From: an uncultured Fibrobacteraceae bacterium
GTDB taxonomy: Bacteria > Krumholzibacteriota > Krumholzibacteriia > LZORAL124-64-63
Assembly: GCA_964524645.1 (NCBI GenBank)
Contig: CAZGEC010000002.1
Location: forward strand, 93,076-157,075
DNA length: 64,000 nt
Direction of reading: 5' to 3'
The notes under the pieces are model-generated. The model searched no databases and was not told the DNA's origin. It saw nothing but the letters and a program-made list of their open reading frames with translations. Below, piece by piece: positions 4,822 through 22,447 of this stretch (its first letter is position 1; every line of letters starts with the position of its first letter). Both the position numbers and the translations under genes were made by a program.

Positions 4822-5655
4822 ATGTCGGCTGTGTTCGGGAGCCGTTCCTTGCCCGGTCCGGTCCAGGAGAACGAAGAGATGAGCCAGGATGCGACGATCG
4901 CCGTCAAGGGCTCAGCCGTGGTGGACGACTACGGCATCGACTACACGCGGGCCGTCTGCTCCCAGCTGGACGCGCTGGGCGACCAGTACTGGGAGTGGGT
5001 CCACATCGACCTGCAGCCGGCGCAGCGCCGGCAGCTCGCGGCGGCACAGCCGCAGACAGCGTTTCCGGACTCCTTCCGGGTCTTCGAGAACGCCTGGCTC
5101 GAAGCCAACACGCACATCTCGTGGCGGCTGATCCTCGCCCTCTGGGTGCCCACGGTGATGCTGATGCTGGCGGCGGCGAGGTGGCTGGGGCTGGGCTGGG
5201 CCCGCTTGGTGGGTGCGGCTTTCGGCGGACTGCTGCTGTGGACCCTGGTCGAGTACGTCCTGCACCGCGTCGTCTTCCACCACGAGCCCCGCAACGGGTG
5301 GGAGCGCAGGTTCCACTTCCTGGCGCATGGGATTCATCACAAGGATCCCTGGGATCCGACCCGCCTGGTCTTCCCGCCGCTGGCGGGCTACGGAATCACA
5401 TTGCTCCTGTTCGTCGGGATCCGGCTGGTGCTGCCCCTGGCGCCGTCGCTGGCGACGCTCGCGGGCCTGCTGATCGGCTACCTCGGCTATGATCTCGGCC
5501 ACTACGCTTGGCACCACGCCAGATGCGCGCGGGGATGGCCGCACTTTCTCAAGCGCTACCACCTGGCGCACCATCACAAGAACATGGACTCGCACTTCGG
5601 CGTGAGCCAGCCGCTGTGGGACCTCGTCTTCCGGACCTACGGCCCGCGCCGCTGA
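4822..5655 (+). CDS. Fatty acid hydroxylase / sterol desaturase family membrane protein
   Basis: Histidine boxes HRVVFHH, HGIHHKD, HYAWHH and HLAHHH. The start may instead be M at 4879. Confidence 0.8.
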   Translation: MSAVFGSRSLPGPVQENEEMSQDATIAVKGSAVVDDYGIDYTRAVCSQLDALGDQYWEWVHIDLQPAQRRQLAAAQPQTAFPDSFRVFENAWLEANTHISWRLILALWVPTVMLMLAAARWLGLGWARLVGAAFGGLLLWTLVEYVLHRVVFHHEPRNGWERRFHFLAHGIHHKDPWDPTRLVFPPLAGYGITLLLFVGIRLVLPLAPSLATLAGLLIGYLGYDLGHYAWHHARCARGWPHFLKRYHLAHHHKNMDSHFGVSQPLWDLVFRTYGPRR

Positions 5656-5908
5656 GTACCCAGCAGCATCTTCGCTTGCTTCCTGAGGTGGTCGACGCTG
5701 GGGCGACGCGGCCGTGATCCGGACATTATGTGGCCTTCCTTTCGCTGATGCCCGTGACTTGCTCGCTCGGGCCGAAAAGAAGGTTGTATGCGCGGAATCA
5801 GCAGAGGTGGGTTTGACCCTTCCCGCAGGCCAGGTGGCGTCCTTCGCTCGCCAATGACCATTATCCCCGCGTGTCGCCGTCGTGTCAAGAATGGCCGGAT
5901 GGCGCGCG

Positions 5909-6370
5909 CTACACATCGCCGGGCAGCAAGTCCGGATGGTGTTCTTCGAGCCAGACCAGAACGTCATGTGCAAACTGCACGGCCTCATGGTAGATTTCGC
6001 GGGCCTCAGCCTCGGAGATTTCTCCAGACGCGTCATAGTCGACAATGTTGCGCTTGCGGCGACAGGCATCGAAGTAATCGCTTCTTGCGGATGGCAGGGA
6101 TTCCATCAGCTGAGAAAGCGCCTGGAAGGTAATCCAGTGATGAGATTCGCCGCCAGTACGGTAGCCAGAGGAGCGCAGGACCATCGTTGCGAGTTGCAGG
6201 ATGGCATTGTAAGCAGTCGAGTAGCGACGGTCCGGAGAGAGTTGCTCTATGGCTGCGTCCGCGAGATCGCGCTGAACGATGCCCCAGAGAGCCTTGATCT
6301 CCTCGGACGAGGATTGATGCTGGCGAAGCCGGCGCTCACGCAACCAACGTTGCAAGCTCATCATCGTCAC
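5909..6370 (-). CDS. HEPN-like toxin component of a HEPN/MNT pair
   Basis: Small alpha-helical protein immediately downstream of the nucleotidyltransferase gene and overlapping it. The domain assignment rests mainly on context. Confidence 0.5.
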   Translation of the reverse strand: MTMMSLQRWLRERRLRQHQSSSEEIKALWGIVQRDLADAAIEQLSPDRRYSTAYNAILQLATMVLRSSGYRTGGESHHWITFQALSQLMESLPSARSDYFDACRRKRNIVDYDASGEISEAEAREIYHEAVQFAHDVLVWLEEHHPDLLPGDV

Positions 6371-6950
6371 CTATGAGCCAGATCTTGGGGCCGGCCAGGA
6401 CTTTGTGGATGAACGGATTCCCGCTCCGTGCTTTGCTTCGTAGCTCCCTCTCGGGATAGATGGTGGGGTTGAACTCTCGCTCGAGACTGCGACCGAGGGG
6501 ACCGAGAAGCTGTGCGGCTTGCCGCGACGTGAGCTGGCCGACGATGAAGAGATCGACATCGCTGGTCAGAACATCCGTGCCCGCCGCCACTGAGCCGTAG
6601 ACGAACGCCAGGCGGACCTTGCCCTCGAGCGAGCCCAGAACATCCCGGAGCTGGTCGCCGAGGGCGACTGTCTTGAGCAGCATCCTCCGTAGATCGTCAT
6701 AGACGGGGTGCTGGCGACGAGCGCCGTAGTAGGTTCGATTACCGCGACGCCTCTTTTCCACCAGGCCGGCATCCTCGATCCGCTTCAAGGCGCGCTGGGT
6801 CTGCAGCACGGTGCTGCCGACCCTCTCGGCGATCTCCCGCTGGTAGTATTGCTCGTCCGGATGAAGGAGAAGCAGGCCGAGCACATCCAGCATCGCGGGA
6901 TAGGGGAAAAGCCTTGCCAGGGATTGACCTGCAGATTTCGGTCTGGCCAT
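6336..6950 (-). CDS. wHTH (ArsR-like) plus minimal nucleotidyltransferase (MNT-type antitoxin)
   Basis: N-terminal winged HTH. NTase motif GSVAAGTDVLTSDVDL. Start MARPKS. Confidence 0.75.
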   Translation of the reverse strand: MARPKSAGQSLARLFPYPAMLDVLGLLLLHPDEQYYQREIAERVGSTVLQTQRALKRIEDAGLVEKRRRGNRTYYGARRQHPVYDDLRRMLLKTVALGDQLRDVLGSLEGKVRLAFVYGSVAAGTDVLTSDVDLFIVGQLTSRQAAQLLGPLGRSLEREFNPTIYPERELRSKARSGNPFIHKVLAGPKIWLIGDDDELATLVA

Positions 6951-6968
6951 GTGGCCTCTCCGGGACAT

Positions 6969-7009
6969 TTGACTACGAATTGTAGTCAATTGACTACAAT
7001 TCGTAGTCG
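6969..7009. promoter_or_regulatory. Tandem palindromic operator-like sites upstream of the HTH-NTase gene
   Basis: TTGACTACGAATTGTAGTCAA (a perfect inverted repeat) is followed at once by GACTACAATTCGTAGTC, about 20 nt upstream of the 6950 start. Confidence 0.5.
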
Positions 7010-7278
7010 ATGTCAAGCGGCAAGATGCTCCAGGGGATAGGACGCCGGGTATGCCGAGCTCCGGGAACTGGCTCGCAGGGCGGAAAATTGACGCGGGGCG
7101 ATTGGCGGTGCTAGATTGAAGTTGTCGAGCGGGCGCGAGGAGGGCGAGGTACTCGAGGTCGATTGGCCTTCCTGTCATGTGCAGTCGGGTTTCCTGCTTC
7201 CTTTCCCTTGTCGCGATCCCAGAACTTGCAGTGCGGCGGCCACCGGACGGTGCGGGCCGATGACCCGGTTGCTTCACG

Positions 7279-8034
7279 ATGACCGCATCGCGGGAGGTGC
7301 CCATGTACTGGCAGAAATGGTCGAACAGGTTGAAGCAGGAGCTGGCGCTCGAGACGGAGCCCGTCGCGGTGACCTTCACCGGCGCCGTTCCCGAAGGGGG
7401 GGTGCAGCCGGAGGACAAGCTCTCCGTGTGCCAGGCGATCAAGCGGGCCTGCGAGGGTCGCGCCGTCACCATCACGGCCGACACCTGCGGTTGTCCGGGA
7501 GGTCTCGTGAGCCTCGGGCTCGGGCAGATGCCCGCCCAGGGCAAGGAGCGGCTGGTGGACTTCCTGGTCAACCGGGAGAAGGTCTACAGCTCGCGGGCGG
7601 CGCTGCACCGCGGGCAGCAGGTCGTGCAGGCCCCGGCCGGCATGGCGAGCCACGTCTGCTTCGCGCCGCTGGCCGAGGCGGTCGCTCCGCCGGACCTCCT
7701 GCTCTTCGTCGGCAAGCCCGGCTCCCTGCATCATCTCCTCGAGTTCGCCAACTACTGGGAGGGAGGGTCCATGACGGCCGAGCTGGCGGGTCCCACCTGC
7801 CGCACGGGCGTCGCCTATCCCCTGGTCTCGGGTCACGTCGGCGTGTCGCTCTTCGACTCCGGCGCGCGGAGGCTGGGCCGCTTCGCCGACGACCTGCTGC
7901 TCGTTGCCGTGCCCTTCGCCCGCATGCTCGGCATCATGCACGCCTTCGACCAGGGCGTGCACCGGTCGCGTGAGCGGGGAGCCGAGGCCATCGAGCGCCA
8001 GATCGACGAGCTGGGGCCGATCGAGCGGGTCTGA
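7279..8034 (+). CDS. DUF169 family protein
   Basis: Sequence pattern resembles DUF169. The start may instead be MYWQKW at 7303. Confidence 0.55.
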   Translation: MTASREVPMYWQKWSNRLKQELALETEPVAVTFTGAVPEGGVQPEDKLSVCQAIKRACEGRAVTITADTCGCPGGLVSLGLGQMPAQGKERLVDFLVNREKVYSSRAALHRGQQVVQAPAGMASHVCFAPLAEAVAPPDLLLFVGKPGSLHHLLEFANYWEGGSMTAELAGPTCRTGVAYPLVSGHVGVSLFDSGARRLGRFADDLLLVAVPFARMLGIMHAFDQGVHRSRERGAEAIERQIDELGPIERV

Positions 8035-8039
8035 CGGCG

Positions 8040-9335
8040 GTGGGAGACATCCGTGAGAATCAGGAGCGATCGTCGATGAGGGTCCTGATCGTCTCCGCCA
8101 ACACCGAGCGCATCAGCATGGTGACCCTGGCGCTCGGTGCGAGCCTGGTGGCCAGCGCCGCAGAGCGGGCGGGCCACGAGGTGAGCTTCCTGGATCTGCT
8201 GTTCGCCAAGGATCCCGCCGGTGCGGTCCGCGACGCCATCGCCTCGTTCCGGCCCGAGGTGATCGGCATCTCCGTCCGCAACATCGACGACCAGAACCGG
8301 GAGGAACCGCAGTTCCTGCTCGAGAAGGTCCGCGAGGTCACCGCCGAATGTCGCGCCGGCTCGGCCGCTCCCCTCGTCCTCGGCGGCGCCGGCTACGGCA
8401 TCTACCCGCATGCGATGCTCGATTATCTCGGGGCCGATTTCGGCATCCGCGGAGACGGAGAGGAAGCGTTTCCCGCCCTCCTGCAGCGGCTGCAAGAGGG
8501 CCGCTCCCCGCGCGACATTTCCGGCGTCACTGTGGCGGGCGACCCGACCGACGGCGGGCTGGCCGTCGTGGAGAAGCTGGACGAGCTGCCGCTCTGGAAC
8601 GATCTGCTCTCCGCTCGCACCCCCCCGGTGCCGGGCCTCTGCGTCCCCATCCAGACCCGCCGGGGCTGTCCGAACGACTGCGCCTACTGCTCCACGGCCC
8701 GCATCCAGGGCCGGCCCATCCGTTGCGCCTCGCCGGCCGCCGCAGCCGAAACCCTGGCGCATCTGGCGGAGCAGGGCTTCCGTCACTTCCACATCGTGGA
8801 CAACTGCTTCAACCTGCCCGAATCGCATGCCTTCGAGCTGTGCCGGCGCCTCCGCGAGCGGAACCTGGAGATCACCTGGCGCTGCATCCTCTACCCGCAC
8901 CTGGTGAAGGAGGAGCTGGTCGACGCCATGAGGGAGGCCGGCTGCACCGAGGTCAGCCTGGGCTTCGAGAGCGGCTGCGCCCGCATCCTGAAGGCCCTGA
9001 ACAAGCGCTTCCTGCCCCGCGACGTGCGGCTCGCCGCGGACCGGCTGGCCGCCCGCGGCATCGAGCGCATGGGCTTCCTCCTGCTCGGCGGCCCCGGCGA
9101 GACGCGGGAATCGGTCGAGGAGAGCCTGGCCTTCGTGCGATCGCTGGAACTGGAGGAGCTGAAGATCACCGTCGGCATCCGCATCTACCCGGACACCGCC
9201 CTGGCCCGCCTCGCCGTCCGCGAGGGCGTCATCGCCCCGGACGACGACCTCCTGCGTCCCCGCTTCTACCTGGCCCCCGGCCTGGAGCCCTGGATCCACG
9301 ACCGCGTCGCGGAGTTCACGGAATCGGCGACTTGA
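8040..9335 (+). CDS. B12-binding domain radical SAM protein
   Basis: N-terminal B12-binding-like Rossmann region, then CPNDCAYCS (CxxxCxxC). The start is probably MRVLIV at 8076. Confidence 0.85.
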   Translation: MGDIRENQERSSMRVLIVSANTERISMVTLALGASLVASAAERAGHEVSFLDLLFAKDPAGAVRDAIASFRPEVIGISVRNIDDQNREEPQFLLEKVREVTAECRAGSAAPLVLGGAGYGIYPHAMLDYLGADFGIRGDGEEAFPALLQRLQEGRSPRDISGVTVAGDPTDGGLAVVEKLDELPLWNDLLSARTPPVPGLCVPIQTRRGCPNDCAYCSTARIQGRPIRCASPAAAAETLAHLAEQGFRHFHIVDNCFNLPESHAFELCRRLRERNLEITWRCILYPHLVKEELVDAMREAGCTEVSLGFESGCARILKALNKRFLPRDVRLAADRLAARGIERMGFLLLGGPGETRESVEESLAFVRSLELEELKITVGIRIYPDTALARLAVREGVIAPDDDLLRPRFYLAPGLEPWIHDRVAEFTESAT

Positions 9336-9377
9336 ATCGAGGTGACGCAAGCTTGGCGGGCGAGCTGCCCGGCACCA

Positions 9378-9839
9378 TCATTTTCGGCATTGCGGGTCCA
9401 GGAATCTGATCGCGCGCCCGGAAATGGTATCCTCGGACATGGTTACCATGATCCCGTTTCCCGAAATACTCCTGGCCGAATCAGCCAGTACCTCGATTGC
9501 TCGCTCTTGCCAGCCAAAAAATTCACGCCCGCTGCCTTTACAAATGCTGCCAACATTTCCCGGGACCTCGTAGGGACAGCTCGGCTTCTCGCCTTGGTGA
9601 TCGGCTCCCTCGAAGAATGCGATGATCGGTCGGCAATCCGAGTCAATGGATCTGACGACCTTTGCCCCGATGCCGATGTTCTTGTAGTAGATCGTTTTCC
9701 CCTCTCCAAGTCCAAGGCTACCGGTAACTCGGAATAGGAGCACCGCATCCCCTCCAAGTTTGCGGGCCGTTCTCTTGAATTCAGCGACGGCCTCCTCCGG
9801 GACGTCCATGGGTCCTTTGGGTAAAGGGCCGGGCAGCAC
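9378..9839 (-). CDS. Hypothetical protein, possibly a duplicated YbjQ/DUF74-like domain, in a low-GC patch
   Basis: Weak resemblance to the UPF0145 family (LGGDAVLLFRVTGS...G...KVV). GC is about 55%, against about 70% in the flanks. Confidence 0.35.
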   Translation of the reverse strand: MLPGPLPKGPMDVPEEAVAEFKRTARKLGGDAVLLFRVTGSLGLGEGKTIYYKNIGIGAKVVRSIDSDCRPIIAFFEGADHQGEKPSCPYEVPGNVGSICKGSGREFFGWQERAIEVLADSARSISGNGIMVTMSEDTISGRAIRFLDPQCRK

Positions 9840-9911
9840 AACGTGCAGGTCCGCACGACGATCACGACGGTGTCAGCCCGCGCGGCAATTCCCGGGGAAG
9901 CTCCTGGCGCG

Positions 9912-9940
9912 AAAAAAAGGGCCCGGCGAATGCCGGGCCC
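9912..9940 (-). terminator. Rho-independent terminator downstream of gene 9971..10699
   Basis: Hairpin GGGCCCGGC-gaat-GCCGGGCCC, followed on the minus strand by a T7 run. Confidence 0.5.
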
Positions 9941-9970
9941 GAAGCCAGCCTTGAGCAAGGCCGGACCGAA

Positions 9971-10699
9971 CTAGCGGTACATGTCCTTCACGCCGCCCCA
10001 GGTGCTTTCCTGGTTGGCGACCGTGGAACAGGCGTTGGTGGCGCCCGGCGTGGCGTAGGAGACGTAGTAGCCGTCTTCCACCGTGCAGCCCGAGCCGGTG
10101 GACTCGGTGCCGTTCAGGCAGATGATGTACCACTCGCCGCCGACCGCATCGCAGTCGTCGCAGCGGGCTCCGCCGGCGGGATCGTAGCTCCCGTCGGGGC
10201 CGACGCCAGTGATTCCATAGTAGGTCATGCAGTCGCCCGAATCAGGAATCCCGTAGCCGACGCCGTCCACCACGGTGCCGATCGAGAAGTCGGCCACGCA
10301 GTCGCCGTCGGCGTCGATGTCCGTGCCGATCGGGTAGAGGCCCGCGTCGAAGTCGGCCAGCAGCAGGATGTTGTTGCCGCCGTTCTCGATCCAGCCATCA
10401 GCCAGCTCCAGGTCGGGGTTGACGGCGGCATCGCCGACCACGAAGTAGCCCGTTGCGCCCACGGAGTAGCCGTTCAGGCTGATGATGTTGTCGATGAGAC
10501 CGGAGGAGGCGCCCTCGCCCTCGACCAGGACAATGGTCAGGCCGTCCAGGCTCTCGCCGGGATTGCCGCACAGCTCGATGAACTCGTGATCATCGCCGCT
10601 GATGTCGTTGGAGACCCACTCGTTGATGACCACGGCGTTGGCTGCTCCGGCGATGGCCAGGCAGGCCGCCATCAGGACGGTAAGCATAATCTTGCGCAT
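9971..10699 (-). CDS. Secreted protein with a lamin-tail-domain-like N-terminus and the shared C-terminal WGGVKDMYR tail
   Basis: Signal peptide MRKIMLTVLMAACLAIAGAANA. LTD-like motif VVINEW..ND.SG.D.EFIELCGNPGESLDG. Ends STWGGVKDMYR-COOH. Confidence 0.75.
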   Translation of the reverse strand: MRKIMLTVLMAACLAIAGAANAVVINEWVSNDISGDDHEFIELCGNPGESLDGLTIVLVEGEGASSGLIDNIISLNGYSVGATGYFVVGDAAVNPDLELADGWIENGGNNILLLADFDAGLYPIGTDIDADGDCVADFSIGTVVDGVGYGIPDSGDCMTYYGITGVGPDGSYDPAGGARCDDCDAVGGEWYIICLNGTESTGSGCTVEDGYYVSYATPGATNACSTVANQESTWGGVKDMYR

Positions 10700-11062
10700 G
10701 TCGCGTGACCCCCTTCAGGGTTGGTTCCAGGTCCTTGGCCCTTGACGGTAGCAGAAGTGACGAGCATCACCTCCTTGCCGGTTAGGACGTGGCAAACCGT
10801 CGAGCCGCCGCATCGACGGCTGCTTACATTATTTTTCTAGTGTTGTCATGATATCACAAAATCATCTGGATGTAAAGGCACTTCGGGGCCGAAGGGTGGA
10901 CAGCAACGCAGTCCATGGAACTTTATTTCTGACATAACCTAAAAAAGCCACGCGGGCCGGATCCGCGCCCTGGCCCGTTCGGAACCGAGGCCGGAGCGGG
11001 CCGCGCCCGGCCTCATTGCTCCGCCCGCTCCCGTGCATTACACTGCCAACGGAGGTGGAACG

Positions 11063-12319
11063 ATGTTCCGGCACCCCATGAGCCGCCGGCAGTTCCTGCA
11101 GGCGGCCGCCCGCACTGGGCTGACGGCGGGCGGAGCCGGTCTGCTGGTGGCCAGTCCCGAGGCTCTCGTCCGGCTGCTGGGGGAGGGCAGCGCCGAGGCC
11201 CTCGCCGCCACCGATCTGCAGGCCCTCATCCGGCAGGCCCCCGTCGCGCGCTACTGGGTCTCGACCCTCACCCCCGGTGTCGACTGCGCCAGCTGCCACG
11301 CCCCGGGCGAGGTCGATCCGCACGCCCCCTTCGATCACGGGGGCCAGGGGATCGTCCGCTGCCTGCTCTGCGCCCAGCGCTGCCTGATCGAACCGGGCGA
11401 GCGCGGCCGCTGCCGGGCCCGCATCAACGTGAACGGGGAGCTGCGCACCCTGGTCTACGGGCGGCCCATCACCATCCACGTGGATCCCATCGAGAAGAAG
11501 CCCTTCTACCACTTCCTGCCCGGCCAGCAGGCCTTCTCCCTGGCGACCTCCGGCTGCCCGCTCCGCTGCAAGTTCTGCCAGAACTGGGAGATCTCGCAGG
11601 CCCGGCCCGAGGACTACGAGAGCCGCATCGTGCCGCCCGCCGATCTCGTCGGTGCGGTGCGCGACCGCCACGCGCCGATCGTCGCCTTCACCTACAACGA
11701 GCCGACGGTCTTCACGGAGTACCTGACGGACATCGCGCGCCTGGCCCGGGCGCAGGGCGTGCATCCCGTGCTGGTCAGCTGCGGCTTCATGAACGAGGAG
11801 CCGCTGACCGAGATGTGCGAGGTGCTGGACGCGATCAAGATCGACTTGAAGGGCTATACCGAGACGTTCTACCAGGAGGTCTGCGGGGCGGCGCTGCAGC
11901 CCGTGCTCCGCAGCATCGCCCAGGTCTCCCGCAGCGGGACCCACCTGGAGCTGGTGAACCTGGTGGTGCCCACGCTCAACGACGCGGATGCCATGCTGAC
12001 CGAGCTGACCAAGTGGGTGGCGGGCGAGCTGGGGCCGGACGTCCCGGTGCACTTCACCCGCTTTCATCCCGACTACCAGCTCCAGAACCTGCCGCCGACG
12101 CCGGTGGCCACGCTCGAGCGCGCGCGGGCCATCGCCCTCGCGCAGGGTCTGCACTACCCCTACGTGGGCAACGTGCCGGGCCATCCCGGCAACAACACCT
12201 ACTGCCCGGGCTGCGGCCAGGTCGTGATCGAGCGGCAGGGCTTCTTCATCCGGCGCAACGACATCGTGAACGGCCACTGCCGCTGGTGTGGGCAGGCCAT
12301 CGCGGGCGTGTGGAGCTGA
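11063..12319 (+). CDS. amrS: AmmeMemoRadiSam system radical SAM enzyme (AmrS-like) with a twin-arginine (Tat) signal
   Basis: RBS GGAGGTGG precedes MFRHPMSRRQFLQAAARTGLTAGGAGLLVASPEA (SRRxFLQ Tat motif). CPLRCKFCQNWEIS is a CxxxCxxC motif. Confidence 0.85.
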   Translation: MFRHPMSRRQFLQAAARTGLTAGGAGLLVASPEALVRLLGEGSAEALAATDLQALIRQAPVARYWVSTLTPGVDCASCHAPGEVDPHAPFDHGGQGIVRCLLCAQRCLIEPGERGRCRARINVNGELRTLVYGRPITIHVDPIEKKPFYHFLPGQQAFSLATSGCPLRCKFCQNWEISQARPEDYESRIVPPADLVGAVRDRHAPIVAFTYNEPTVFTEYLTDIARLARAQGVHPVLVSCGFMNEEPLTEMCEVLDAIKIDLKGYTETFYQEVCGAALQPVLRSIAQVSRSGTHLELVNLVVPTLNDADAMLTELTKWVAGELGPDVPVHFTRFHPDYQLQNLPPTPVATLERARAIALAQGLHYPYVGNVPGHPGNNTYCPGCGQVVIERQGFFIRRNDIVNGHCRWCGQAIAGVWS

Positions 12320-12359
12320 CGCTCCCCGAGCGGGGCCGGCGCGCGAAGAGGAGGATGTC

Positions 12360-13904
12360 ATGAGGTCCAGGGCGGCCGCGGGCCTGCTGGTCCTGTCGCT
12401 GCTGGCGGTGGCGGGCGGTCTGTACCTGATTTCCGCCACGCCCACAGCGGGCCCGGGTCCGCGACCCATGGCCGTCGCGGGACGCTTCTATCCCGCCGAC
12501 GGAGGCCGGTTGCAGGCCGCCGTGGAAGCCTTTCTGGAGGACGCGGTCCCGCCGCGCCAGGAACGGCCGGTCGCGCTGGTGGCGCCCCACGCCGGTTACG
12601 TCTTCTCCGGCCAGATCGCGGCCGATGCCTTCCGGCAGGCCAGCGGCCACGATTACGACCTGGTGGTGATCCTCGGCACCAACCACACGCAGCCGCCCTT
12701 CCGCGGCGTCTCGTTCTACCCGGGCGATGGCTACCTGACGCCCCTCGGCCTGGCTCCCATCGACCGCGAGGCGACCCGGGCCCTGGTGGCCGCCGATCCC
12801 GACTTCGGCTTCCGGCCGGAAGTGCACCGCGAGGAGCACTCGGTGGAGGTCCAGGTCCCCTTCGTGCAGGTCGCCCTGCCGGGGGTGAAGATCGTGGCGG
12901 CGGTGGTGGGGGACTCCGATCCCGACTTGTGCGGCCGTCTCGGGCGCGCGCTGGCCCGGGTGCTCGCCGGCCGCCGGCCGCTGATCGTGGCCAGCAGCGA
13001 CCTGAGCCACTACCCCGGGTACGAGGGATCCATGGCCGCGGATCGCGTGACGCTGACCGCCGTGGCCGCGGGCGATCCCGCCGAGCTGCCCGGGACGCTG
13101 GCGCGGGAGATGCGCAAGGGAATCTCCGGGCTGGCCACCTGCGCGTGCGGGGAGGGGCCGATCCTGGCCGCCATGACGGCGGCCCGCGAGCTGGGTGCAC
13201 GTTACGGCCGCATCGTCAGCCATGCCAACTCGGGCGATTCGGCCGTCGGGGACCCGGAGCGCGTGGTGGGCTACGGCGCCGTGGTCTTCGCGCCCGGTCC
13301 GACCTGGAGCGATACCATGGCGCTGCGTCTTCCTGTGCCGGCCGCGGCGGACGTGCCCCTGGGCGATGCGGACAAGCGCACGCTGCTGCGCCTGGCCCGC
13401 GAGACCATCCGGCGCTACCTCGCCACCGAGACCGTGCCCCTGGCCCGGGACCTCTCGCCGGTCCTCTGCCGGCGGCAGGGGGCCTTCGTGACGCTCGAGA
13501 AGCACGGCCAGCTCCGCGGCTGCATCGGCCACATGGCCGAGGACCGCCAGCTGGCCCAGGTGGTCGGCGCCATGGCCCTGCAGGCCGCCCTCAACGATCG
13601 GCGCTTTCCGGCCCTACAGCCGTCCGAGCTGTCCCAGTGCGAGATCGAGATCTCGGTCCTCACTCCGTTCCGGCCCGTCTCCGGTCCCGGGGCGATCACG
13701 ATCGGACGGGACGGCGTGCTGCTGCGCAAGGGGGGGCGCTCGGCGGTCTTCCTGCCCCAGGTGGCGCCCGAGCAGGGCTGGGACCGCGAGCAGATGCTGG
13801 ACCAGCTCTGCCGCAAGGCCGGCCTGCCGGCCGGGAGCTGGCGCGAGGGTGCCCAGCTCTTTACCTTCCAGGCGGAGGTCTTCGGCGAGTCGGACCTCCA
13901 CTGA
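12360..13904 (+). CDS. AmrB (Memo-like) - AmrA (AMMECR1) fusion protein with an N-terminal signal/anchor
   Basis: N-terminal half AGRFYPADG...APHAGY is Memo family. C-terminal half GAFVTLEKHGQLRGCIGHM is the AMMECR1 core. The N-terminus MRSRAAAGLLVLSLLAVAGGLYLI is hydrophobic. RBS GAGGAGGA. Confidence 0.85.
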   Translation: MRSRAAAGLLVLSLLAVAGGLYLISATPTAGPGPRPMAVAGRFYPADGGRLQAAVEAFLEDAVPPRQERPVALVAPHAGYVFSGQIAADAFRQASGHDYDLVVILGTNHTQPPFRGVSFYPGDGYLTPLGLAPIDREATRALVAADPDFGFRPEVHREEHSVEVQVPFVQVALPGVKIVAAVVGDSDPDLCGRLGRALARVLAGRRPLIVASSDLSHYPGYEGSMAADRVTLTAVAAGDPAELPGTLAREMRKGISGLATCACGEGPILAAMTAARELGARYGRIVSHANSGDSAVGDPERVVGYGAVVFAPGPTWSDTMALRLPVPAAADVPLGDADKRTLLRLARETIRRYLATETVPLARDLSPVLCRRQGAFVTLEKHGQLRGCIGHMAEDRQLAQVVGAMALQAALNDRRFPALQPSELSQCEIEISVLTPFRPVSGPGAITIGRDGVLLRKGGRSAVFLPQVAPEQGWDREQMLDQLCRKAGLPAGSWREGAQLFTFQAEVFGESDLH

Positions 13905-13922
13905 TCTCGATGGACCTCGTGC

Positions 13923-16115
13923 ATGACGTTCTGGCTGCTGGCCGTCGGTTTTCTCTCCCTGCTGGCGCAGGTCGTCCTGCTGCGCGAGCTGAACGTCGCC
14001 TTCTACGGTAGCGAGCTGATCTACATCCTGGCCCTGGGGGGCTGGCTGCTCGGAACAGCCACGGGAGCCCTGCTCGGCCGCAGGCCCCTGCGGCCCACGC
14101 CGGCCCGGGTGCGCCGTCTCCTGCTGGTCCTGGCCGTGGTCTTCCCGCTCACGCTGGCGGAGGTGCGCGGGGCCCGCCTGCTCTGGGGCGCCGTGCCGGG
14201 TGCCTACCTGCCCTTTCCCCGCCAGATCGCGGCGCTGCTGGTGGCCTTGCTGCCGGTGGGGGCGTTGCTGGGACAGCTCTTCCGGCTGGCCGCGGGTCTG
14301 GCCGCGCAGCGGGGCCGCACGCTGGCCTGGGCCTACGCCGTCGAGAGCGCCGGGGGCCTGGCCGGCGGTGTGCTCGCAACCTTGCTGCTGGAGTGGTCCG
14401 TCCCGAACCTGACCGCGGGTCTGCTGTGCGGCCTGTTGGCCGCCGGCGCGGTCTTCTGGCCCTGGCGCGGCCGTTCCCGCGGCCTGACCGGAGGGGCCGC
14501 CGCCGTCGCGCTGCTCCTGCTCGCCGCCCTCGCGGCCGGTCGCGGGCTGGATCGCCGGCTCACGACCTGGGATCATCCCCACCTGGCGGCGACGCGGGAC
14601 ACGCCCTACGGCCGCGTGACGGTCACCGACCGCGACGGGCAGCTCTCGGTCTTCGTGAACGACGCCCTCGCCTTCGAGAACGAGGGCACGGCCGCGGAGG
14701 AGTACGCCCAGCTGGCGGCCCTGCAGTGTGCCGAGCCGGAGTCGCTGCTGGTGCTCGGCGGCGGCGTGGAGGGCCTGGTGGGCGAGTTGCTCCAGCACCG
14801 GCCCGCGGCGCTGGATTACGTGGAGCTGAACCGCGACCTGCTGGACCTGGTGCGGTCCCGCCTGCCGCCCGCGGTGGAGGCCGATCTGGCGGCTCCGGCC
14901 GTGCGCGTGACCGTGGCCGAGCCGCGGCGCTTCCTGGCCCGGGCGGGCCGCTACGACCTGATCCTGATCGGCATGCCGGAGCCGGATTCGGGCCAGGCGA
15001 ACCGCTTCTACACGCGGGAGTTCTTCCAGATTTGCGCGGCGCATCTGCGGCCGGGCGGCGTGCTGGCCCTGCGCCTGCGGGCGGCCGAGAATCTGTGGTC
15101 GCCCCAGCTCGTGCGCCGGACGGCCAGCATCGCGCGCGCCCTGCGCGAGGTCTTCCCCGATCTGGTCGCCCTGCCCGGGACCACCGTGATCCTGCTGGCC
15201 TCGCCGGCTCCCCTGCCTCGCGATCCCGGGATCCTGGCGCGGCGCTGGGAGGATCGCGGGATCGTGACGCGTCTCGTCTCGCCCGCCTACATCCGCTACC
15301 TGTACACGAACGACCGCTTCGCCGAGGTGGCGGGATTGCTGCAGGAGTCCCGCGCTCCGGTCAACCTCGACCTGCGGCCCGTCTGCTACCAGTCCACGCT
15401 CCTGCTCTGGCTGGCCAGGTTCTTTCCCGCGCTCGCGCTCCTGGACTGGCCCGCCCGGATCTCCGCCTGGCCCTGGCGCGCCCCGGTCCTCTGGCTGGGG
15501 GCGCTGCTGCTCCTGGGCCTGCTGCTGCTGGCGCGGCGCGGCGAGGGATCCCGGCGCGCCGCCCGGGTGGGCATCGCGGGCGGGGTGGGCATGGTTCTCG
15601 AGACGGTGCTCATCCTGGCCTACCAGGTGCGCAGCGGCATTCTCTTCCAGGATCTGGGGCTGCTATTGACCGCCTTCATGGGCGGCCTGGCGCTGGGCGC
15701 GTTGCTGCTCGAGAGGTGGGGGCAGCGGCGACGGCAGGTCCTGGACATCACCGCCGGTCCGCCGGCCGGGGCGGTGCCGATCCCCGGCTGGCTGGGAGCC
15801 CTGTGCCTGGGCGGTCTGGCCCTGCTGGGCGCGGGCACGGCCGGGCTGGTGGCCGCCGGCCTCGCCGGCCGCCTGCTCGTCGCGGCCCTGCTGCTCCTGC
15901 TGGCCGGCACGGGAGTGGCCGCCGTCTTCGCGCAGGCCAGCCTGGCCAGCGGTCGCGACCAGGCGGCCGCCATCGCCCCCCTCTACGCCGCCGATCTGGC
16001 GGGAGGCTGTCTGGGCTCGCTCCTGGCCAGTCTCCTGCTCGTGCCGCTGGCGGGCCTGGGCGGCACGGCCCTGCTGGCCGTGCTGATCACCCTCCTGGGA
16101 CTGCTGCTGGTCTGA
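13923..16115 (+). CDS. Polytopic membrane protein with an embedded spermidine synthase-like (aminopropyltransferase-fold) domain
   Basis: Many TM helices flank LVLGGGVEGLVGEL...YDLILIGMPEPDS..FYTREFF, which is a SpeE-like Rossmann fold. Confidence 0.8.
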   Translation: MTFWLLAVGFLSLLAQVVLLRELNVAFYGSELIYILALGGWLLGTATGALLGRRPLRPTPARVRRLLLVLAVVFPLTLAEVRGARLLWGAVPGAYLPFPRQIAALLVALLPVGALLGQLFRLAAGLAAQRGRTLAWAYAVESAGGLAGGVLATLLLEWSVPNLTAGLLCGLLAAGAVFWPWRGRSRGLTGGAAAVALLLLAALAAGRGLDRRLTTWDHPHLAATRDTPYGRVTVTDRDGQLSVFVNDALAFENEGTAAEEYAQLAALQCAEPESLLVLGGGVEGLVGELLQHRPAALDYVELNRDLLDLVRSRLPPAVEADLAAPAVRVTVAEPRRFLARAGRYDLILIGMPEPDSGQANRFYTREFFQICAAHLRPGGVLALRLRAAENLWSPQLVRRTASIARALREVFPDLVALPGTTVILLASPAPLPRDPGILARRWEDRGIVTRLVSPAYIRYLYTNDRFAEVAGLLQESRAPVNLDLRPVCYQSTLLLWLARFFPALALLDWPARISAWPWRAPVLWLGALLLLGLLLLARRGEGSRRAARVGIAGGVGMVLETVLILAYQVRSGILFQDLGLLLTAFMGGLALGALLLERWGQRRRQVLDITAGPPAGAVPIPGWLGALCLGGLALLGAGTAGLVAAGLAGRLLVAALLLLLAGTGVAAVFAQASLASGRDQAAAIAPLYAADLAGGCLGSLLASLLLVPLAGLGGTALLAVLITLLGLLLV

Positions 16116-16118
16116 GCC

Positions 16119-16148
16119 AAAAAAGCGGGAGCCGCTCTCGCGGCTCCC
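16119..16148 (-). terminator. Rho-independent terminator for the PDZ gene, lying between convergent genes
   Basis: GGGAGCCG-ctctcg-CGGCTCCC, followed on the minus strand by TTTTTT. Confidence 0.5.
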
Positions 16149-16172
16149 GAGGCGCCGGATCGGGGGGTGTGA

Positions 16173-17222
16173 TCAGCGCCCTTTCTTCTCCTGCTGCAGC
16201 TGCTCCTTCAGCTGCTGCATTTCCTTCTGGAGCGCCTTCATCTCGGCCCGCAGCTCCTCCATGCTCTTGTCCGACTCCTCGCCGTACCAGCGATGGATCT
16301 GGGGCATGCGGCCCTCCATGCGCGGCAAGGCACGGTGCAGCCGCTGCATGTCGGGCATCATTCTCTCGAAGTTCTCCCCGCCGACCCAGCCCAGCGCGCC
16401 GCTGGTCTCGCCGAGTTTCACCTCAAAGGTCTTGTCCTTGCCCTTGCGCAGGACGGTGACGGCCACCTCGTCGCCCGGGTCCTTGTCGCGCAGGTAGGAG
16501 GTCACGTCGGCCACGTCGTCGATCTTCTCGTCGTCGATCTGCAGGATGACGTCACCCGCCTGCAGTCCGGCCTCGGCGGCCGGCGTATCCGCGTTGACCT
16601 CCTCGATCAGGGCGCCCTCGCCGTCCTCCACCCCGAAGTAGTCGCCGAGCTGGACCGTGAGATCGCGCAGGCTCACGCCCAGGTAGCCATGCTCGCGGCC
16701 CAGGTTGTGGTAGAAGTACCTTTGGCCTTCGTCGTCGCCCGGGCGGAGGATTTCGATGCGCTTGCCGCCGTCGTCGTTCCAGACCATGACGTCGGTCTTG
16801 CGCTCGCCGAGGGTGACCTCGAGGTCCTTGGACTTTCCGTCGCGGATGATGCCGATCTTCACCTCGTCGCCCGGTTCCTGCTTGCGCACCAGGCGAACCA
16901 GCTCGCCCGTGTCCTCGACCTTCTGGCCGGCGAAGGAGACGATCACGTCTCCCTCCTCGAGGCCGGCCTTCGCGGCCGGCGAGTCCTTGCTCACGCTGTT
17001 GACCAGCACGCCGCCGTTCTCGATGTCGAGAGCCTTGGCCATGCTGTCGTTCAGCTCCTGCATGCTGATGCCGAGCCAGCCCTGGCCGGTGGCCGACTCG
17101 GTGATCTTGGCGGGCTTGTCCGGCTTCTCGGTCCTGGCGAGGGCGCTGCCGGCGGTCAGCAGGCCGACCAGGAGGGCCAGCAGGGCCAGAGCCGTGATCT
17201 GGGGTATCAGGGGCCGTTTCAT
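16173..17222 (-). CDS. Periplasmic tandem-PDZ protein (DegP/DegQ-type PDZ pair with no protease domain) and a C-terminal coiled coil
   Basis: Signal peptide. Two PDZ domains (GWLGISMQELN...GVLV...PAAKAGL..GDVI.., then a second copy). No His/Asp/Ser trypsin-type domain. Confidence 0.8.
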   Translation of the reverse strand: MKRPLIPQITALALLALLVGLLTAGSALARTEKPDKPAKITESATGQGWLGISMQELNDSMAKALDIENGGVLVNSVSKDSPAAKAGLEEGDVIVSFAGQKVEDTGELVRLVRKQEPGDEVKIGIIRDGKSKDLEVTLGERKTDVMVWNDDGGKRIEILRPGDDEGQRYFYHNLGREHGYLGVSLRDLTVQLGDYFGVEDGEGALIEEVNADTPAAEAGLQAGDVILQIDDEKIDDVADVTSYLRDKDPGDEVAVTVLRKGKDKTFEVKLGETSGALGWVGGENFERMMPDMQRLHRALPRMEGRMPQIHRWYGEESDKSMEELRAEMKALQKEMQQLKEQLQQEKKGR

Positions 17223-17336
17223 GAGCGATCCTTTCCCGGGGGATGGAGCCTGGAGCCTGTCGGAGAATGCCGGGGAAACACGCGACCCGCCGGGCAGGTT
17301 CCCGCGGGCTGGCCGCAGCGGGGGGGCAGGGCGTCC

Positions 17337-18641
17337 TCAGGGCCGCCCGCGCCGGAACATGCCCCAGCCGCGCCAGGCCCCCGCGGCGAGCAGCAGGTAG
17401 AAGGGCAGGTATTGGGACCAGCGGGCCCAGACCGCCAGGTGCCAGACGCCGGTGGCGTGGTAGCCGATCATCATCTCCTCGGCCAGCGGGGCAAGGATGC
17501 CCAGGGCGAGGAGGGCCGGGTCCGGACGCAGAGCCAGCAGCGGGTACATCCCGATCAGGTACCAGGGGAAGAGGGTGGGGGTGAAGATGACGAAGGCAGC
17601 CTGGGCCAGCAGCATCCGCGACAGCAAGTCGCGTCCGCGCCAGGCCCCCAGGAGGATCGCGAGGGCGGCCGCGGCCGCGGCGACCAGGTGCGCCGCGTGG
17701 CGCGGCAGCAGGGTCTCGAACCAGGCGCCCAGGCTGCCGTCGAAGGACCACTCGGTGGCCATCAGCCAGGTGGAGCTGAACAGCTTCCAGCCCGCCCTCG
17801 CGAAGGGTAGGTAGCAGAGCAGTCCCACGCCCAGGCCGGCCAGGGCCAGGCGCAGGCCGCCGCGGCGGCCCAGCTCGCGCAGCGCTGCGGGCACGAAGAT
17901 CAGCGGCAGCGGCTTCACCAGGCAGGCCAGGGCGAGGGCCACACCCGCGCGCGCGCCCTGGCCGCGGGCCGTCGCGAGCAGGAACCAGGTCACCAGCGGC
18001 AGGCTCAGGACGTCCAGGTGGCCGGGCAGGTAGCCCTCGTAGACGATCAGCGGCGCCCAGGCGATCAGCAGGATCCGGGAGGTGGGAGCGGCCCGGCGGC
18101 GCAGCTCTCCCAGCAGCAGCAGCCAGGTGATCAGCTCGGCGGCCAGTCCCAGCAGCTGCAGGCCGGTCAGGCGGCCCGGGCTGAGCAGGTAGCCCACCGC
18201 GAACAGCAGCTCCGCCAGGGGCGGATAGCAGGTGCGGTTCCAGGGATGGTTGATGCGCGCATCGAGTACGTGGATGGGCAGATGGGCCACTGCCGGCTCG
18301 TCGGGCGCGTGCAGGTAGGGATTGCCGCCGTGGGCCAGGACCTTGCCGTCCCAGTGGTAGCGGGCGGCGTCGTCGCTCAGCTCGTGGTGGGCTGGCAGCA
18401 GGGCCAGGCGCACGGCCACGGCCAGCAGCAGCGCCAGGGCCAGCCAGCCCCGCCCCGGCCGCTCCCGGCGCCAGGCGAGCGCCGCCAGCACGACGAGTGG
18501 GCCGGCGGCGACCGCACCGGCGATCACCCCGACGACCCAGGGGCCGCACGGGCCCCGGCCCAGCCCGGCCCGGAGCGCGCCGGCGAGCAGGACGGCCGCC
18601 GCCGCCGCCAGCGCGGCCCAGCGTGCCCGCGGGCCGGTCAT
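17337..18641 (-). CDS. DUF2029 / GT87-like (GT-C fold) integral membrane glycosyltransferase-like protein
   Basis: About ten TM helices with the PMT/GT-C style pattern. Start MTGPRARW overlaps the upstream GT2 stop (ATGA). Confidence 0.7.
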   Translation of the reverse strand: MTGPRARWAALAAAAAVLLAGALRAGLGRGPCGPWVVGVIAGAVAAGPLVVLAALAWRRERPGRGWLALALLLAVAVRLALLPAHHELSDDAARYHWDGKVLAHGGNPYLHAPDEPAVAHLPIHVLDARINHPWNRTCYPPLAELLFAVGYLLSPGRLTGLQLLGLAAELITWLLLLGELRRRAAPTSRILLIAWAPLIVYEGYLPGHLDVLSLPLVTWFLLATARGQGARAGVALALACLVKPLPLIFVPAALRELGRRGGLRLALAGLGVGLLCYLPFARAGWKLFSSTWLMATEWSFDGSLGAWFETLLPRHAAHLVAAAAAALAILLGAWRGRDLLSRMLLAQAAFVIFTPTLFPWYLIGMYPLLALRPDPALLALGILAPLAEEMMIGYHATGVWHLAVWARWSQYLPFYLLLAAGAWRGWGMFRRGRP

Positions 18642-20179
18642 CACCCCGGTCTGGCGGCGTATCTGTGGTGCCGGACGGAGAGGATTCCCACGCAGGTGAA
18701 GCCCACCGCCTGCACCAGCAGCAGGGCTCCGGCCAGGGAGCCGATGGCGAACAGGTAGCCCAGGAAGGCGGCGAAGGCCCAGAAGCCCATGAGGAATTCC
18801 ACGAGGTAGAGCCGGCTGAGGGGCTGCCGGTAGACGACGAGCTGCCCCGGCCCGGTGGTCCCGCCCGCATCCGCGGGGGCCTCGGCCGCGGCCCCGAGCT
18901 TCGGGGTGCGCACGAACTCGCCGCCCGCCCGGTCCAGGACCGCCTCGAGCACGGCGCGGCTGTTGTTCACGGCCAGGCCGATCCCCAGGGCCACCAGGGC
19001 GGGCAGGGCCAGGAGGGAGCGGCGCCAGTCCCGGCCGGTCAGGATCTGCGAGGCGAGGTAGAGGCTGCTCGGGCCCAGCAGCGCCAGGAGCATGGTCGCC
19101 ACCAGCGGCACGGCGAAGGGCGTGGTGAAGCGGATCTGCAGGAGGGTGATCAGCGGCAGCACCAGGATCGTCATGAGCAGGATCAGCGGGTGGATCATGT
19201 AGTGGGTCAGGTGCAGCACGGCCTGCAGCTTCTGGAACCACCCGAAATCGGGGCGGTGCAGCACGGTGGGCAGCAGCTGGATGGCGGTCTGGATGCTCCC
19301 CTTGGCCCAGCGGCGTTGCTGGGACTTGAGCGCGTTGATGTCCGTGGGGATCTCGGCCGGCGTCACGACGTCCAGCAGGAAGCACGGCCGCCAGCCCCGT
19401 ATCATGCAGCGGTAGGAGAGGTCCAGATCCTCGGTCAGGGTGTCGGCCCGCCAGCCGCCGGCGTCGGCGATGGCGGCGGCCCGCCAGACCCCGGCCGTGC
19501 CGTTGAAGTTGCAGAACAGGCCGTTGCCGGCCCGCGCCGTCTGCTCGACGACGAAGTGGCCGTCGATGCCGATGCTCTGCAGGAGGGTCAGCAGGGAGAA
19601 GCCGCGGTTGCGATGTCCCCAGCGGGTCTGCACGAAGCCGCAGTGCTCGTCGGCCAGCAGGAAGGGCACGGTCTGCCGCAGGAAATCCGGCGGCGGGACG
19701 AAGTCGGCGTCGAAGACGGCCACGAACTCGCCGCGGGCCCGGCGCAGCCCCTCGGCCAGGGCTCCCGCTTTGAAGCCACGGCGGTCGGTGCGGCGGATGT
19801 GCCGGACGTCGTGACCGGCGGCTCGCAGCTTCATGGTCAGGCCGGCCACGATCTCGGTGGTCGAGTCCGTGGAGTCGTCCAGCACCTGGATCTCGTGCTT
19901 CTCGCGCGGGTAGTCGAAGGCGCAGACCGCCTGCAGCAGACGCTCGATCACGTTGCGCTCGTTGAAGATGGGCAGCTGGGTCGTCACGACGGGCAGCTCC
20001 GCGTCGGGCACCGAGGTGGTGAACCAGGCGTGCACCCTGCGCGCCTCCTGCCGGTACCGGCGCCGGCTGCGCCAGAACAGCCCGAGCATGACGTAGGCGT
20101 TCAGACCGTAGACCAGCAGGAGGACCGAGCAGAGGACGTACAGCCCCAGGGCGATCGTCAACGCGAGGTCGAGAGCCAT
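18641..20179 (-). CDS. Family 2 processive glycosyltransferase (cellulose/chitin-synthase-like)
   Basis: DXD FDADF. QQRRW (QxxRW). N- and C-terminal TM helices. Confidence 0.85.
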   Translation of the reverse strand: MALDLALTIALGLYVLCSVLLLVYGLNAYVMLGLFWRSRRRYRQEARRVHAWFTTSVPDAELPVVTTQLPIFNERNVIERLLQAVCAFDYPREKHEIQVLDDSTDSTTEIVAGLTMKLRAAGHDVRHIRRTDRRGFKAGALAEGLRRARGEFVAVFDADFVPPPDFLRQTVPFLLADEHCGFVQTRWGHRNRGFSLLTLLQSIGIDGHFVVEQTARAGNGLFCNFNGTAGVWRAAAIADAGGWRADTLTEDLDLSYRCMIRGWRPCFLLDVVTPAEIPTDINALKSQQRRWAKGSIQTAIQLLPTVLHRPDFGWFQKLQAVLHLTHYMIHPLILLMTILVLPLITLLQIRFTTPFAVPLVATMLLALLGPSSLYLASQILTGRDWRRSLLALPALVALGIGLAVNNSRAVLEAVLDRAGGEFVRTPKLGAAAEAPADAGGTTGPGQLVVYRQPLSRLYLVEFLMGFWAFAAFLGYLFAIGSLAGALLLVQAVGFTCVGILSVRHHRYAARPG

Positions 20180-20183
20180 GGAA

Positions 20184-22417: not shown

Positions 22418-22447
22418 GGTCCCCTTCCGGAGCGGCCCGGGTCTCGC

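Follow-up and report, generated by a model that had tools for sequence, protein, structure and literature searches.

Can a radical S-adenosylmethionine (SAM) enzyme work outside the cytoplasm? Enzymes of this kind form one of the largest enzyme superfamilies. Their dependence on SAM and on a low-potential reductant, together with an oxygen-labile cluster that has to be protected, is the reason why they are regarded as strictly cytoplasmic. The question is raised by an AmmeMemoRadiSam locus in a 64,000-nucleotide stretch of DNA (the window) from an uncultured Fibrobacteraceae bacterium. Three closely spaced genes on the + strand of the window encode, in this order, the radical SAM enzyme AmrS, a fusion of AmrB (Memo) and AmrA (AMMECR1), and a polytopic membrane protein with an aminopropyltransferase-fold domain. 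Our analysis makes it probable, if by no means certain, that this operon gives rise to a membrane-associated form of the AmmeMemoRadiSam system that works outside the cytoplasm.

The genes for AmrS and the fusion are separated by 40 nt on the same strand, those for the fusion and the polytopic protein by 18 nt, and no terminator-like site lies between the three genes in the window sequence. As part of the best explanation of the locus, we take 11063–16115 to be a single operon of three genes. The first gene product is a long form of AmrS whose N-terminus reads MFRHPMSRRQFLQAAARTGLTAGGAGLLVASPEA. Its features are:

11051..11057, + strand: Shine-Dalgarno sequence GGAGGTG, 5 nt before the AmrS ATG (direct sequence reading)
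11063..12319, + strand: AmrS-type radical SAM enzyme, 418 residues, long form (TIGR04337, 355.4 bits against a cutoff of 220; PF04055)
11063..11164, + strand: predicted twin-arginine translocation (Tat) signal peptide, about residues 1–34, with S7-R8-R9-Q10-F11-L12, a Gly/Ala-rich h-region and SPEA (TIGR01409 and conservation)
11261..11353, + strand: subfamily-specific insertion of about 25–30 residues, C75-x2-C78-H79 plus H92 (CxxCH-x12-H; alignment and pattern counts)
11360..11413, + strand: N-terminal Cys cluster C100-x2-C103-x3-C107...C117 (invariant in 132 sequences including short forms)
11555..11578, + strand: radical SAM cluster motif C165-x3-C169-x2-C172 (conserved in both AmrS alignments, of 27 and 132 sequences)
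12203..12289, + strand: C-terminal Cys4 of two CxxC, C381, C384, C406 and C409 (invariant in 27, nearly invariant in 132 sequences)

The 120 closest AmrS homologues listed are 62–96% identical to the window protein, nearly all of the same length, and cover the whole query. The 27-sequence alignment is made of homologues with 62–73% identity, and the 132-sequence alignment takes in short forms. The AlphaFold2 model of AmrS (predicted local distance difference test, pLDDT, 93.7) has a catalytic core in the form of a partial barrel resembling that of pyruvate formate-lyase activating enzyme (PFL-AE). No AmrS structure was found in the PDB; PFL-AE (3CB8) is the closest solved fold, with a TM score of 0.82 normalised to the target and 19–20% identity. 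The cysteines C100/C103/C107/C117, which are common to the whole AmrS family, are presumed to bind an auxiliary iron–sulphur (Fe–S) cluster. Public names in use for the proteins of the three families are ‘pyruvate formate lyase activating enzyme’, ‘AmmeMemoRadiSam system radical SAM enzyme’, ‘spermidine synthase’ and ‘hypothetical protein’. An identity as glycyl-radical activase was rejected (TIGR02493, 60.5 against 231.75; TIGR02494, 50.5 against 174.35), and no glycyl-radical enzyme partner is encoded in 40 long-form loci.

The N-terminus of AmrS matches the Tat-signal model TIGR01409 with 17.3 bits (cutoff 16.7; E = 0.0045). R8, R9 and F11 are invariant across the 27-homologue alignment, and the subsequent h-region is variable in sequence. 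An RR-x-hydrophobic motif, searched for as a strict pattern, lies within the first 40 residues of 112 of the 120 closest homologues. A looser RR pattern was found in 115 of 121 sequences (114 homologues and the window protein), 82 of these 115 having S/T-R-R-x-F-L. The longest uncharged stretch after the arginines has a median length of 18 residues and a mean hydropathy of 1.23 in the 115 RR-bearing sequences, and 97 of them have a basic residue within 10 residues after this stretch. An S/T-R-R-x-F-L motif, a moderately hydrophobic uncharged h-region and a trailing basic residue, which helps to avoid the general secretory (Sec) pathway, are textbook properties of Tat signals. As the motif is also present in low-GC lineages, e.g. 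Ignavibacteria, an Arg-rich composition does not explain it. An earlier note on this DNA had described an AmrS-like radical SAM enzyme with a Tat N-terminus, and both parts of this description are borne out, with TIGR04337 and TIGR01409 above cutoff and RRxF conserved. That the N-terminus is a genuine, conserved, export-type Tat signal is a well-supported prediction.

The second gene starts with the ATG at 12360, not at 12357, and its product begins MRSRAAAGLLVLSLLAVAGGLYLI:

12350..12356, + strand: Shine-Dalgarno sequence GGAGGAT (core AGGAGGA, 4 nt upstream of the fusion ATG 12360; sequence reading)
12360..13904, + strand: AmrB(Memo)-AmrA(AMMECR1) fusion, 514 residues (TIGR04336, 233.4 bits against 26; TIGR04335, 179.8 against 99)
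12360..12440, + strand: predicted Sec-type signal peptide or anchor, MRSR plus a 20-residue hydrophobic stretch, then ISA/TP (direct reading)
12468..13283, + strand: Memo (LigB-superfamily) domain (PF01875, E = 3.4e-51; matches MEMO1 structures)
13386..13883, + strand: AMMECR1 domain with LRGCIGH motif (PF01871, E = 1e-54; PH0010, 1VAJ, E = 6.6e-30)

The Memo domain begins at about residue 37, right after the hydrophobic segment. Homologues of the fusion number 7958 at E ≤ 1e-10; N-termini were counted in the 120 closest, which are 55–70% identical apart from one public protein (P0121) with 100% identity. Both domains are present in all 120 fusion homologues listed, and 107 carry a hydrophobic segment immediately before the Memo domain. 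A lipobox was detected in 27 of the 120 by a loose pattern and in 13 by a strict one, and many of the hydrophobic segments end in AxA-like sites; the window fusion has ISA-T only, with no Cys. In the fusion orthologues of Anaerolineae the lipobox is followed by a long Pro/Ser/Thr linker, a combination typical of extracytoplasmic lipoproteins. The earlier note had reported a hydrophobic signal or anchor on an AmrB-AmrA fusion, in agreement with the scores for both families and with the 107 hydrophobic N-termini, and it is well supported by these comparisons that the N-terminus is a genuine, conserved signal or anchor of the Sec or lipoprotein type. The note had also offered a tether facing the cytoplasm as an alternative. 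This is topologically disfavoured: a hydrophobic segment behind a positive n-region puts the downstream domain outside, and the lipoboxes of the orthologues point in the same direction.

The third partner and the probable end of the operon are described by the following features:

13923..16115, + strand: polytopic protein, 730 residues, with 7 transmembrane (TM) helices, an aminopropyltransferase-fold domain of about 300 residues and 6–7 TM helices (PF01564, AlphaFold2)
14565..15467, + strand: aminopropyltransferase-fold domain without the catalytic Asp (HMMER alignment to 3ANX/1UIR)
16126..16149, no strand: GC-rich hairpin (stem of 10 bp) in the gap between the SpeE-like gene and the convergent PDZ gene, likely the operon end

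The polytopic protein matches PF01564 with 43 bits (cutoff 22.9), and its AlphaFold2 model (pLDDT 91, pTM 0.90) has seven helices ahead of the alpha/beta domain. Compared with SpeE structures by Foldseek, this domain gave TM scores of 0.73–0.78 normalised to the target. Part of the Gly-rich nucleotide-binding loop is kept, with G279 and G280 invariant. GMPEP (VGMPEP in the consensus of 64 homologues) aligns with DLTDP of Thermus SpeE (3ANX/1UIR), the first Asp of which we take to be the catalytic base. An identity as spermidine synthase was rejected, as the catalytic Asp is missing and the scores are under the cutoffs (PRK03612, 83 against 472; PRK00811, 57 against 260; TIGR00417, 52 against 250); the protein is not a bona fide spermidine synthase. 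It has more than 1000 relatives, with a length of about 720 residues among the matches listed, and several of these are encoded on contigs whose length equals that of contigs with AmrS and fusion homologues.

To orient this protein in the membrane, loop charges were counted with alignment-defined TM segments, which were checked against the helices of the AlphaFold2 model. Even loops contain 14.7 Lys plus Arg residues per sequence and odd loops 2.0; even exceeded odd in 64 of 64 homologues, the parity being the same before and after the domain. Under the positive-inside rule, this predicts a cytoplasmic N-terminus and a periplasmic aminopropyltransferase-fold domain.

How widespread is this arrangement? 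An exhaustive search of 50%-identity cluster representatives yielded 1497 AmrS relatives at E ≤ 1e-30. The best 150 of these 1497 representatives were classified by N-terminus:

short, signal-less: 83
Tat-like: 33
hydrophobic without RR: 6
other N-terminal extension: 9
long N-terminal fusion: 12
fragment: 7

Among species-representative genomes, long-form AmrS is found in Calditrichota, Latescibacterota, Fibrobacteraceae, KSB1, Syntrophales/Desulfobacteraceae and Eisenbacteria, and also in Acidobacteriota (including Aminicenantes and Thermoanaerobaculum), Ignavibacteria/Melioribacteraceae, Anaeromyxobacter and Anaerolineae. Signal-bearing AmrS is a large multi-phylum subfamily with low- and high-GC members, common among uncultured bacteria, and is not peculiar to this genome. 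The earlier note had asked whether the N-terminal extension might be unique; the homologue alignment and the search for orthologous clusters speak against this, as the 33 Tat-like representatives illustrate.

Many AmrS-family representatives (P0243-P0262, P0291, P0313, P0322, P0345 and others) are 600–1150 residues long, with N- or C-terminal fusions. Several of these long proteins begin TM-like, and at least one of them, P0291, resembles a Memo domain fused ahead of the radical SAM domain.

Synteny was analysed by tblastn of all open reading frames (ORFs) of the window against 80 related loci and by all-against-all ORF clustering in the 40 long-form loci. The conserved neighbourhood in these 40 loci comprises AmrS, the fusion and the polytopic gene only, arranged in this order. 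The fusion is present in 37 and the polytopic gene in 28 of them, and most of the absences are at contig ends. The downstream gene, which the earlier note had mentioned as a membrane-embedded, spermidine-synthase-like protein with a SAM fold, thus proved to be part of the module. No further conserved neighbours, such as a cytochrome, ferredoxin or Tat chaperone, were found in the 40 loci, the other clusters being antisense shadows.

Two loci are informative about the relation between the signals. L082 encodes a divergent Tat-type AmrS without CxxCH; its fusion is signal-bearing and starts MNTIFVLLGAVGLCVLCSLNASA, and the polytopic gene is present. L085, by contrast, encodes a bacterial short-form AmrS that is signal-less and starts MGREARYWRARNGGVQCLLC, together with a 452-residue LigB/Memo-AMMECR1 fusion starting directly at the catalytic domain, and has no polytopic neighbour. 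With both signals in the one locus and neither in the other, the signals of AmrS and of the fusion covary. Structures of human MEMO1 and of archaeal AMMECR1, too, have no residues ahead of the domain itself. Two further short-form loci, L081 (with archaeal-looking neighbours) and L084, have no adjacent A or B genes and are uninformative as controls.

In L082 (1738-2661) and L083 (567-1505) a signal-less DUF362 gene is located directly upstream, overlapping the start of a Tat-type AmrS without CxxCH. It could be a lineage-specific accessory component, the occurrence being that of one contig family.

If AmrS is exported, where might its electrons enter? The long form contains an insertion between the Tat signal and the family-wide Cys cluster C100/C103/C107/C117. 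C75, C78 and H79 of its motif (C75-A-S-C78-H79 in the window) are invariant and H92 is at least 90% conserved in the 27-sequence alignment. The pattern ARYW-x9-CxxCH-x17-(V/I)(K/R)C is found in 118 of 120 homologues, with a His located five residues ahead of the end of x17 in 104 of these 118. As a discrete indel, the insertion is missing in the short forms and also in the Tat-bearing protein P0252, which reads ARYWEAAPGGKVRCLLC. The AP-ARYW/CxxCH stretch between the signal and the catalytic core is highly conserved, and AlphaFold2 models it with high confidence. The signature of a bis-His haem c site consists of CxxCH and a His further on. CxxCH-x12-H could, as judged from the sequence, be an electron-entry site, either as haem c or as a Cys2His2 metal site. 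AmrS shares with c-type cytochromes a CxxCH with a conserved His 12 residues on and a predicted location outside the cytoplasm. It differs from them in that the CxxCH region has no cytochrome c Pfam match at E ≤ 0.01 and in that the carrier is of the Tat and not of the Sec type. We did not class AmrS as a cytochrome, as the region contains no recognisable cytochrome c family but only a candidate site.

The source organism is high-GC (~70%) and has a caa3 oxidase and a complex resembling Alternative Complex III (ACIII). The respiratory cluster at 51781-63440 (− strand) encodes subunits I and II of cytochrome oxidase, the latter with a fused cytochrome c domain (caa3 type), together with a monohaem cytochrome c, an NrfD-like membrane subunit and a 1258-residue Fe–S protein resembling that of ACIII. 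As a caa3 oxidase and a cytochrome c are encoded in the window, the organism makes c-type cytochromes and respires O2.

The following scheme would account for the operon. The analysis shows family membership, conserved and covarying signals, synteny of the three genes, the lost catalytic Asp and the loop charge bias; in the scheme we infer in addition that the proteins are exported and face the periplasm, that haem is attached, where SAM and electrons come from and to what class the substrate belongs. AmrS would fold in the cytoplasm and gain its Fe–S there, at the C165/C169/C172 cluster, the C100/C103/C107/C117 site and the C-terminal Cys4 site, and the folded enzyme would leave via Tat by means of its S-R-R-Q-F-L signal. 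The Memo-AMMECR1 fusion would be exported unfolded by Sec and would remain on the outer surface of the inner membrane; here it would be an anchored protein, in some orthologues a lipoprotein. On the same side, the polytopic protein would display its adenosyl-binding aminopropyltransferase-fold domain. The three proteins would jointly modify an extracytoplasmic substrate, of which the most plausible kind is a lipid of the membrane or an envelope molecule linked to a lipid, as opposed to RNA. The CxxCH-x12-H insertion might serve for electron entry, as a bis-His haem c or a metal site, and SAM might travel enzyme-bound or come through the polytopic partner.

A more ambitious version of this scheme can be put forward only tentatively, as it is rather doubtful in its entirety. 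Radical SAM chemistry outside the cytoplasm would then be performed by a self-contained three-protein machine with a haem-fed AmrS and a SAM-handling partner. AmrS would draw its electrons from the periplasmic respiratory pool via a covalent bis-His haem c, the polytopic partner would deliver SAM or remove 5'-deoxyadenosine or methylthioadenosine (MTA) across the membrane, and the fusion would finish the modification of the lipid or envelope substrate. If this were true, Memo and AMMECR1 would ancestrally have served the chemistry of small molecules or lipids and not RNA modification.

Several points weigh against an extracytoplasmic system. The TIGR01409 score of AmrS is a marginal pass. The earlier note had seen an AxA-like cleavage site in SPEA, but the family consensus at the putative cleavage region is LSSPxWL, which is non-AxA, and the window protein has SPEA-L; as SPEA is not conserved, cleavage is uncertain, and the signal may stay as an anchor or be cut elsewhere. 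The CxxCH region has no Pfam match, cytochrome c included, at E ≤ 0.01 in a whole-protein scan. A haem c on a Tat substrate would also be unusual; the apoproteins that normally receive haem c are unfolded and exported by Sec. The topology call for the polytopic protein relies on the positive-inside rule and on counting of weak TM segments; a first, per-sequence hydropathy topology gave inconsistent answers and was replaced by the aligned segments. We know of no periplasmic source of SAM or of a low-potential electron, and the respiration of O2 by the organism is hostile to an exposed radical SAM cluster. In Omnitrophota and allied loci (L048, L051, L053, L059, L063, L067, L075), the N-termini of AmrS are very hydrophobic and Sec- or TM-like, with KR or RR in some and neither in others, which is a poor fit to the export of a pre-folded Fe–S enzyme. 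Finally, four Nitrospirota/Thermodesulfovibrionales loci (L065, L071 at 5789-10762, L072, L074) have the order polytopic SpeE-like gene, AmrS, fusion. Their AmrS is signal-less, starts M..VQCELCPN with a stop codon just upstream and is shorter than the canonical short forms, and yet the fusion keeps its lipobox and the polytopic gene is adjacent. Such a layout puts AmrS and its partners on opposite sides of the membrane, so that co-localisation is not obligatory. The statement of the earlier note that every component carries an export signal is therefore not universal. One idea that would reconcile the signal-less lineages with an extracytoplasmic system is a membrane-embedded substrate accessible from either leaflet.

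The Thermodesulfovibrionales-type loci show exactly the layout expected if the fusion is outside and AmrS performs its SAM chemistry on the cytoplasmic side. The Tat-like N-terminus would then be a handle for chaperones or quality control, for which the vestigial Tat motif of NarG is cited as a parallel, or a peripheral membrane tether, and the product or the modified partner would cross the membrane, perhaps through the polytopic protein. It is established biochemistry that SAM and reductant are cytoplasmic, and the marginal TIGR01409 score and the lack of a conserved AxA site agree with this alternative, which is kept alive by the signal-less and Sec-like AmrS lineages, the respiration of O2 and the missing source of SAM and electrons. 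We nevertheless consider it unlikely, although not negligibly so: a mere tether needs none of the invariant RR-x-F, the uncharged h-region and the basic residue that are retained across many phyla, a positive n-region with a hydrophobic segment puts the next domain outside, and the Tat signal covaries with the export signal of the partner. Alternatively, AmrS might react in the cytoplasm or during assembly, for example on itself, a bound cofactor or a small molecule, before Tat takes it out as a loaded carrier or a structural component, with no SAM turnover outside. Tat is known to move folded, cofactor-loaded proteins; the nearest fold is that of PFL-AE, an activase, and enzymes of this type have a protein partner on which they act a limited number of times; and radical SAM maturases such as anSME work on proteins destined for export ahead of their translocation. 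But the conserved partners are Sec-signalled or membrane-embedded and hence not folded beside AmrS in the cytoplasm, the conservation of CxxCH-x12-H hints at a redox role of the exported enzyme, and the neighbourhood contains no conserved small substrate gene in 40 loci, all of which makes such a single-turnover role distinctly improbable. As to miscalled starts, named in the earlier note as what would refute it, long spurious upstream reading frames are common in high-GC genomes and many are present in the window, so that ordinary cytoplasmic AmrS and AmrB-AmrA proteins could in principle be hidden behind them. That this is the case here is hardly credible: Shine-Dalgarno sites directly precede both ATGs, the extensions keep their motif and length in more than 100 homologues, low-GC ones included, and the region between signal and core (AP-ARYW, CxxCH) is highly conserved and confidently modelled. 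An extracytoplasmic, membrane-associated AmmeMemoRadiSam variant thus remains the reading that we favour.

Compared with the known AmmeMemoRadiSam system (AmrS/AmrB/AmrA; TIGR04337/TIGR04336/TIGR04335), the locus has all families above cutoff in one operon, and its AmrS shares the N-terminal Cys cluster, the CX3CX2C motif and the C-terminal Cys4 of the family. It differs by the Tat signal and CxxCH-x12-H of AmrS, by the Sec or lipoprotein-type signal of the fusion and by the additional conserved polytopic protein with an aminopropyltransferase fold. Canonical archaeal and eukaryotic members and the bacterial short form in L085 lack all these additions. The earlier note had called the Memo-AMMECR1 fusion notable. 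With its 7958 homologues it is common, and the fusion and its radical SAM neighbourhood were already described in 2007, when a role in RNA base modification was predicted (PMC2034487). That role cannot apply to an exported variant. AmmeMemoRadiSam receives only passing mentions in the searchable literature. Burroughs et al. 2019 reportedly linked Memo to the modification of nucleotide bases and isoprenoids. No description of a periplasmic, secreted, exported or extracytoplasmic radical SAM enzyme was found in the searchable literature, and the 2019 study might mention secreted versions.

The glycyl-radical activases, of which PFL-AE is the closest solved fold to AmrS and whose name is often used for it in databases, are cytoplasmic, whereas AmrS is Tat-signalled; AmrS also has the extra N- and C-terminal Cys clusters and no glycyl-radical enzyme nearby. 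With Tat-exported Fe–S proteins (Rieske proteins, the small subunits of periplasmic hydrogenases, partners of the dimethyl sulphoxide (DMSO) reductase family) it would share cofactor insertion in the cytoplasm and export in the folded state by means of an S/T-R-R-x-F-L signal, and the ACIII-like Fe–S protein encoded in the same window belongs to this comparison; to our knowledge, no radical SAM enzyme is among these proteins. Radical SAM maturases (anSME/AtsB for sulphatases; HxsB-type) likewise tie radical SAM chemistry to a periplasmic protein and are the model behind a cytoplasmic AmrS with partners outside. anSME is signal-less and remains in the cytoplasm, and only its substrate is exported. 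The HxsB-type maturase of the periplasmic HXS effector, which serves as an analogy only, is also signal-less and cytoplasmic with only its substrate exported (PMC13128918). The AmrS of the window differs from these maturases in bearing a Tat signal itself. The polytopic partner resembles membrane-anchored aminopropyltransferases (PRK03612-type SpeE) in its complete aminopropyltransferase fold, which comes after a membrane domain of several helices at the N-terminus. It is set apart by GMPEP in place of DLTDP, by a second bundle of 6–7 TM helices after the domain, by a loop charge bias that puts the domain outside and by its position next to AmrS and AmrB-AmrA in 28 of 40 loci.

That a large conserved clade spanning several phyla has a Tat signal of functional appearance calls into question the assumption that radical SAM enzymes are confined to the cytoplasm. 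It would imply that SAM and electrons reach the periplasm by a new route or that the mechanism is SAM-sparing. Human MEMO1 has been associated with cell motility and cancer, AMMECR1 with an X-linked contiguous gene syndrome, and we know of no established biochemical function of either Memo or AMMECR1. An exported variant with intact Memo and AMMECR1 family signatures argues that their shared chemistry targets something that is also present outside the cell membrane. The unit of interest is larger than the earlier note held, as it consists of three genes and the CxxCH insertion, and is far more widespread, while the fusion itself is ordinary. The three-gene operon is a defined unit that is tractable to experiment.

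The window also contains other genes around the operon. Upstream, a DUF169 protein (7279-8034, + strand) is directly followed by a B12-binding radical SAM protein (8040-9335), which scores 285 bits with TIGR04072 (lipid biosynthesis B12-binding/radical SAM), under the cutoff of 360. It was matched in only one of the 80 related AmrS loci and so is not a conserved neighbour. A divergently transcribed gene (9971-10699, − strand) encodes a 242-residue protein with a clear signal peptide (MRKIMLTVLMAACLAIAGAANA) and no Pfam match, and a sigma-70-like promoter match is located on its strand at 10876-10848. Downstream of the operon, a run of envelope and sugar genes (16173-23906, − strand) encodes a double-PDZ periplasmic protein, a GT87-like polytopic glycosyltransferase and a GT2+DUF2064 protein, as well as a DUF3641 radical SAM protein and a CMD-family protein; these genes are not conserved beside the module in other genomes. 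Further upstream, at 2940-5655, an ABC-2 type exporter permease (2940-3686) and its ATPase (3683-4747) adjoin a fatty acid hydroxylase family protein (4822-5655). The ATPase ORF has weak matches, with a median identity of 30%, in seven of the 80 related loci.

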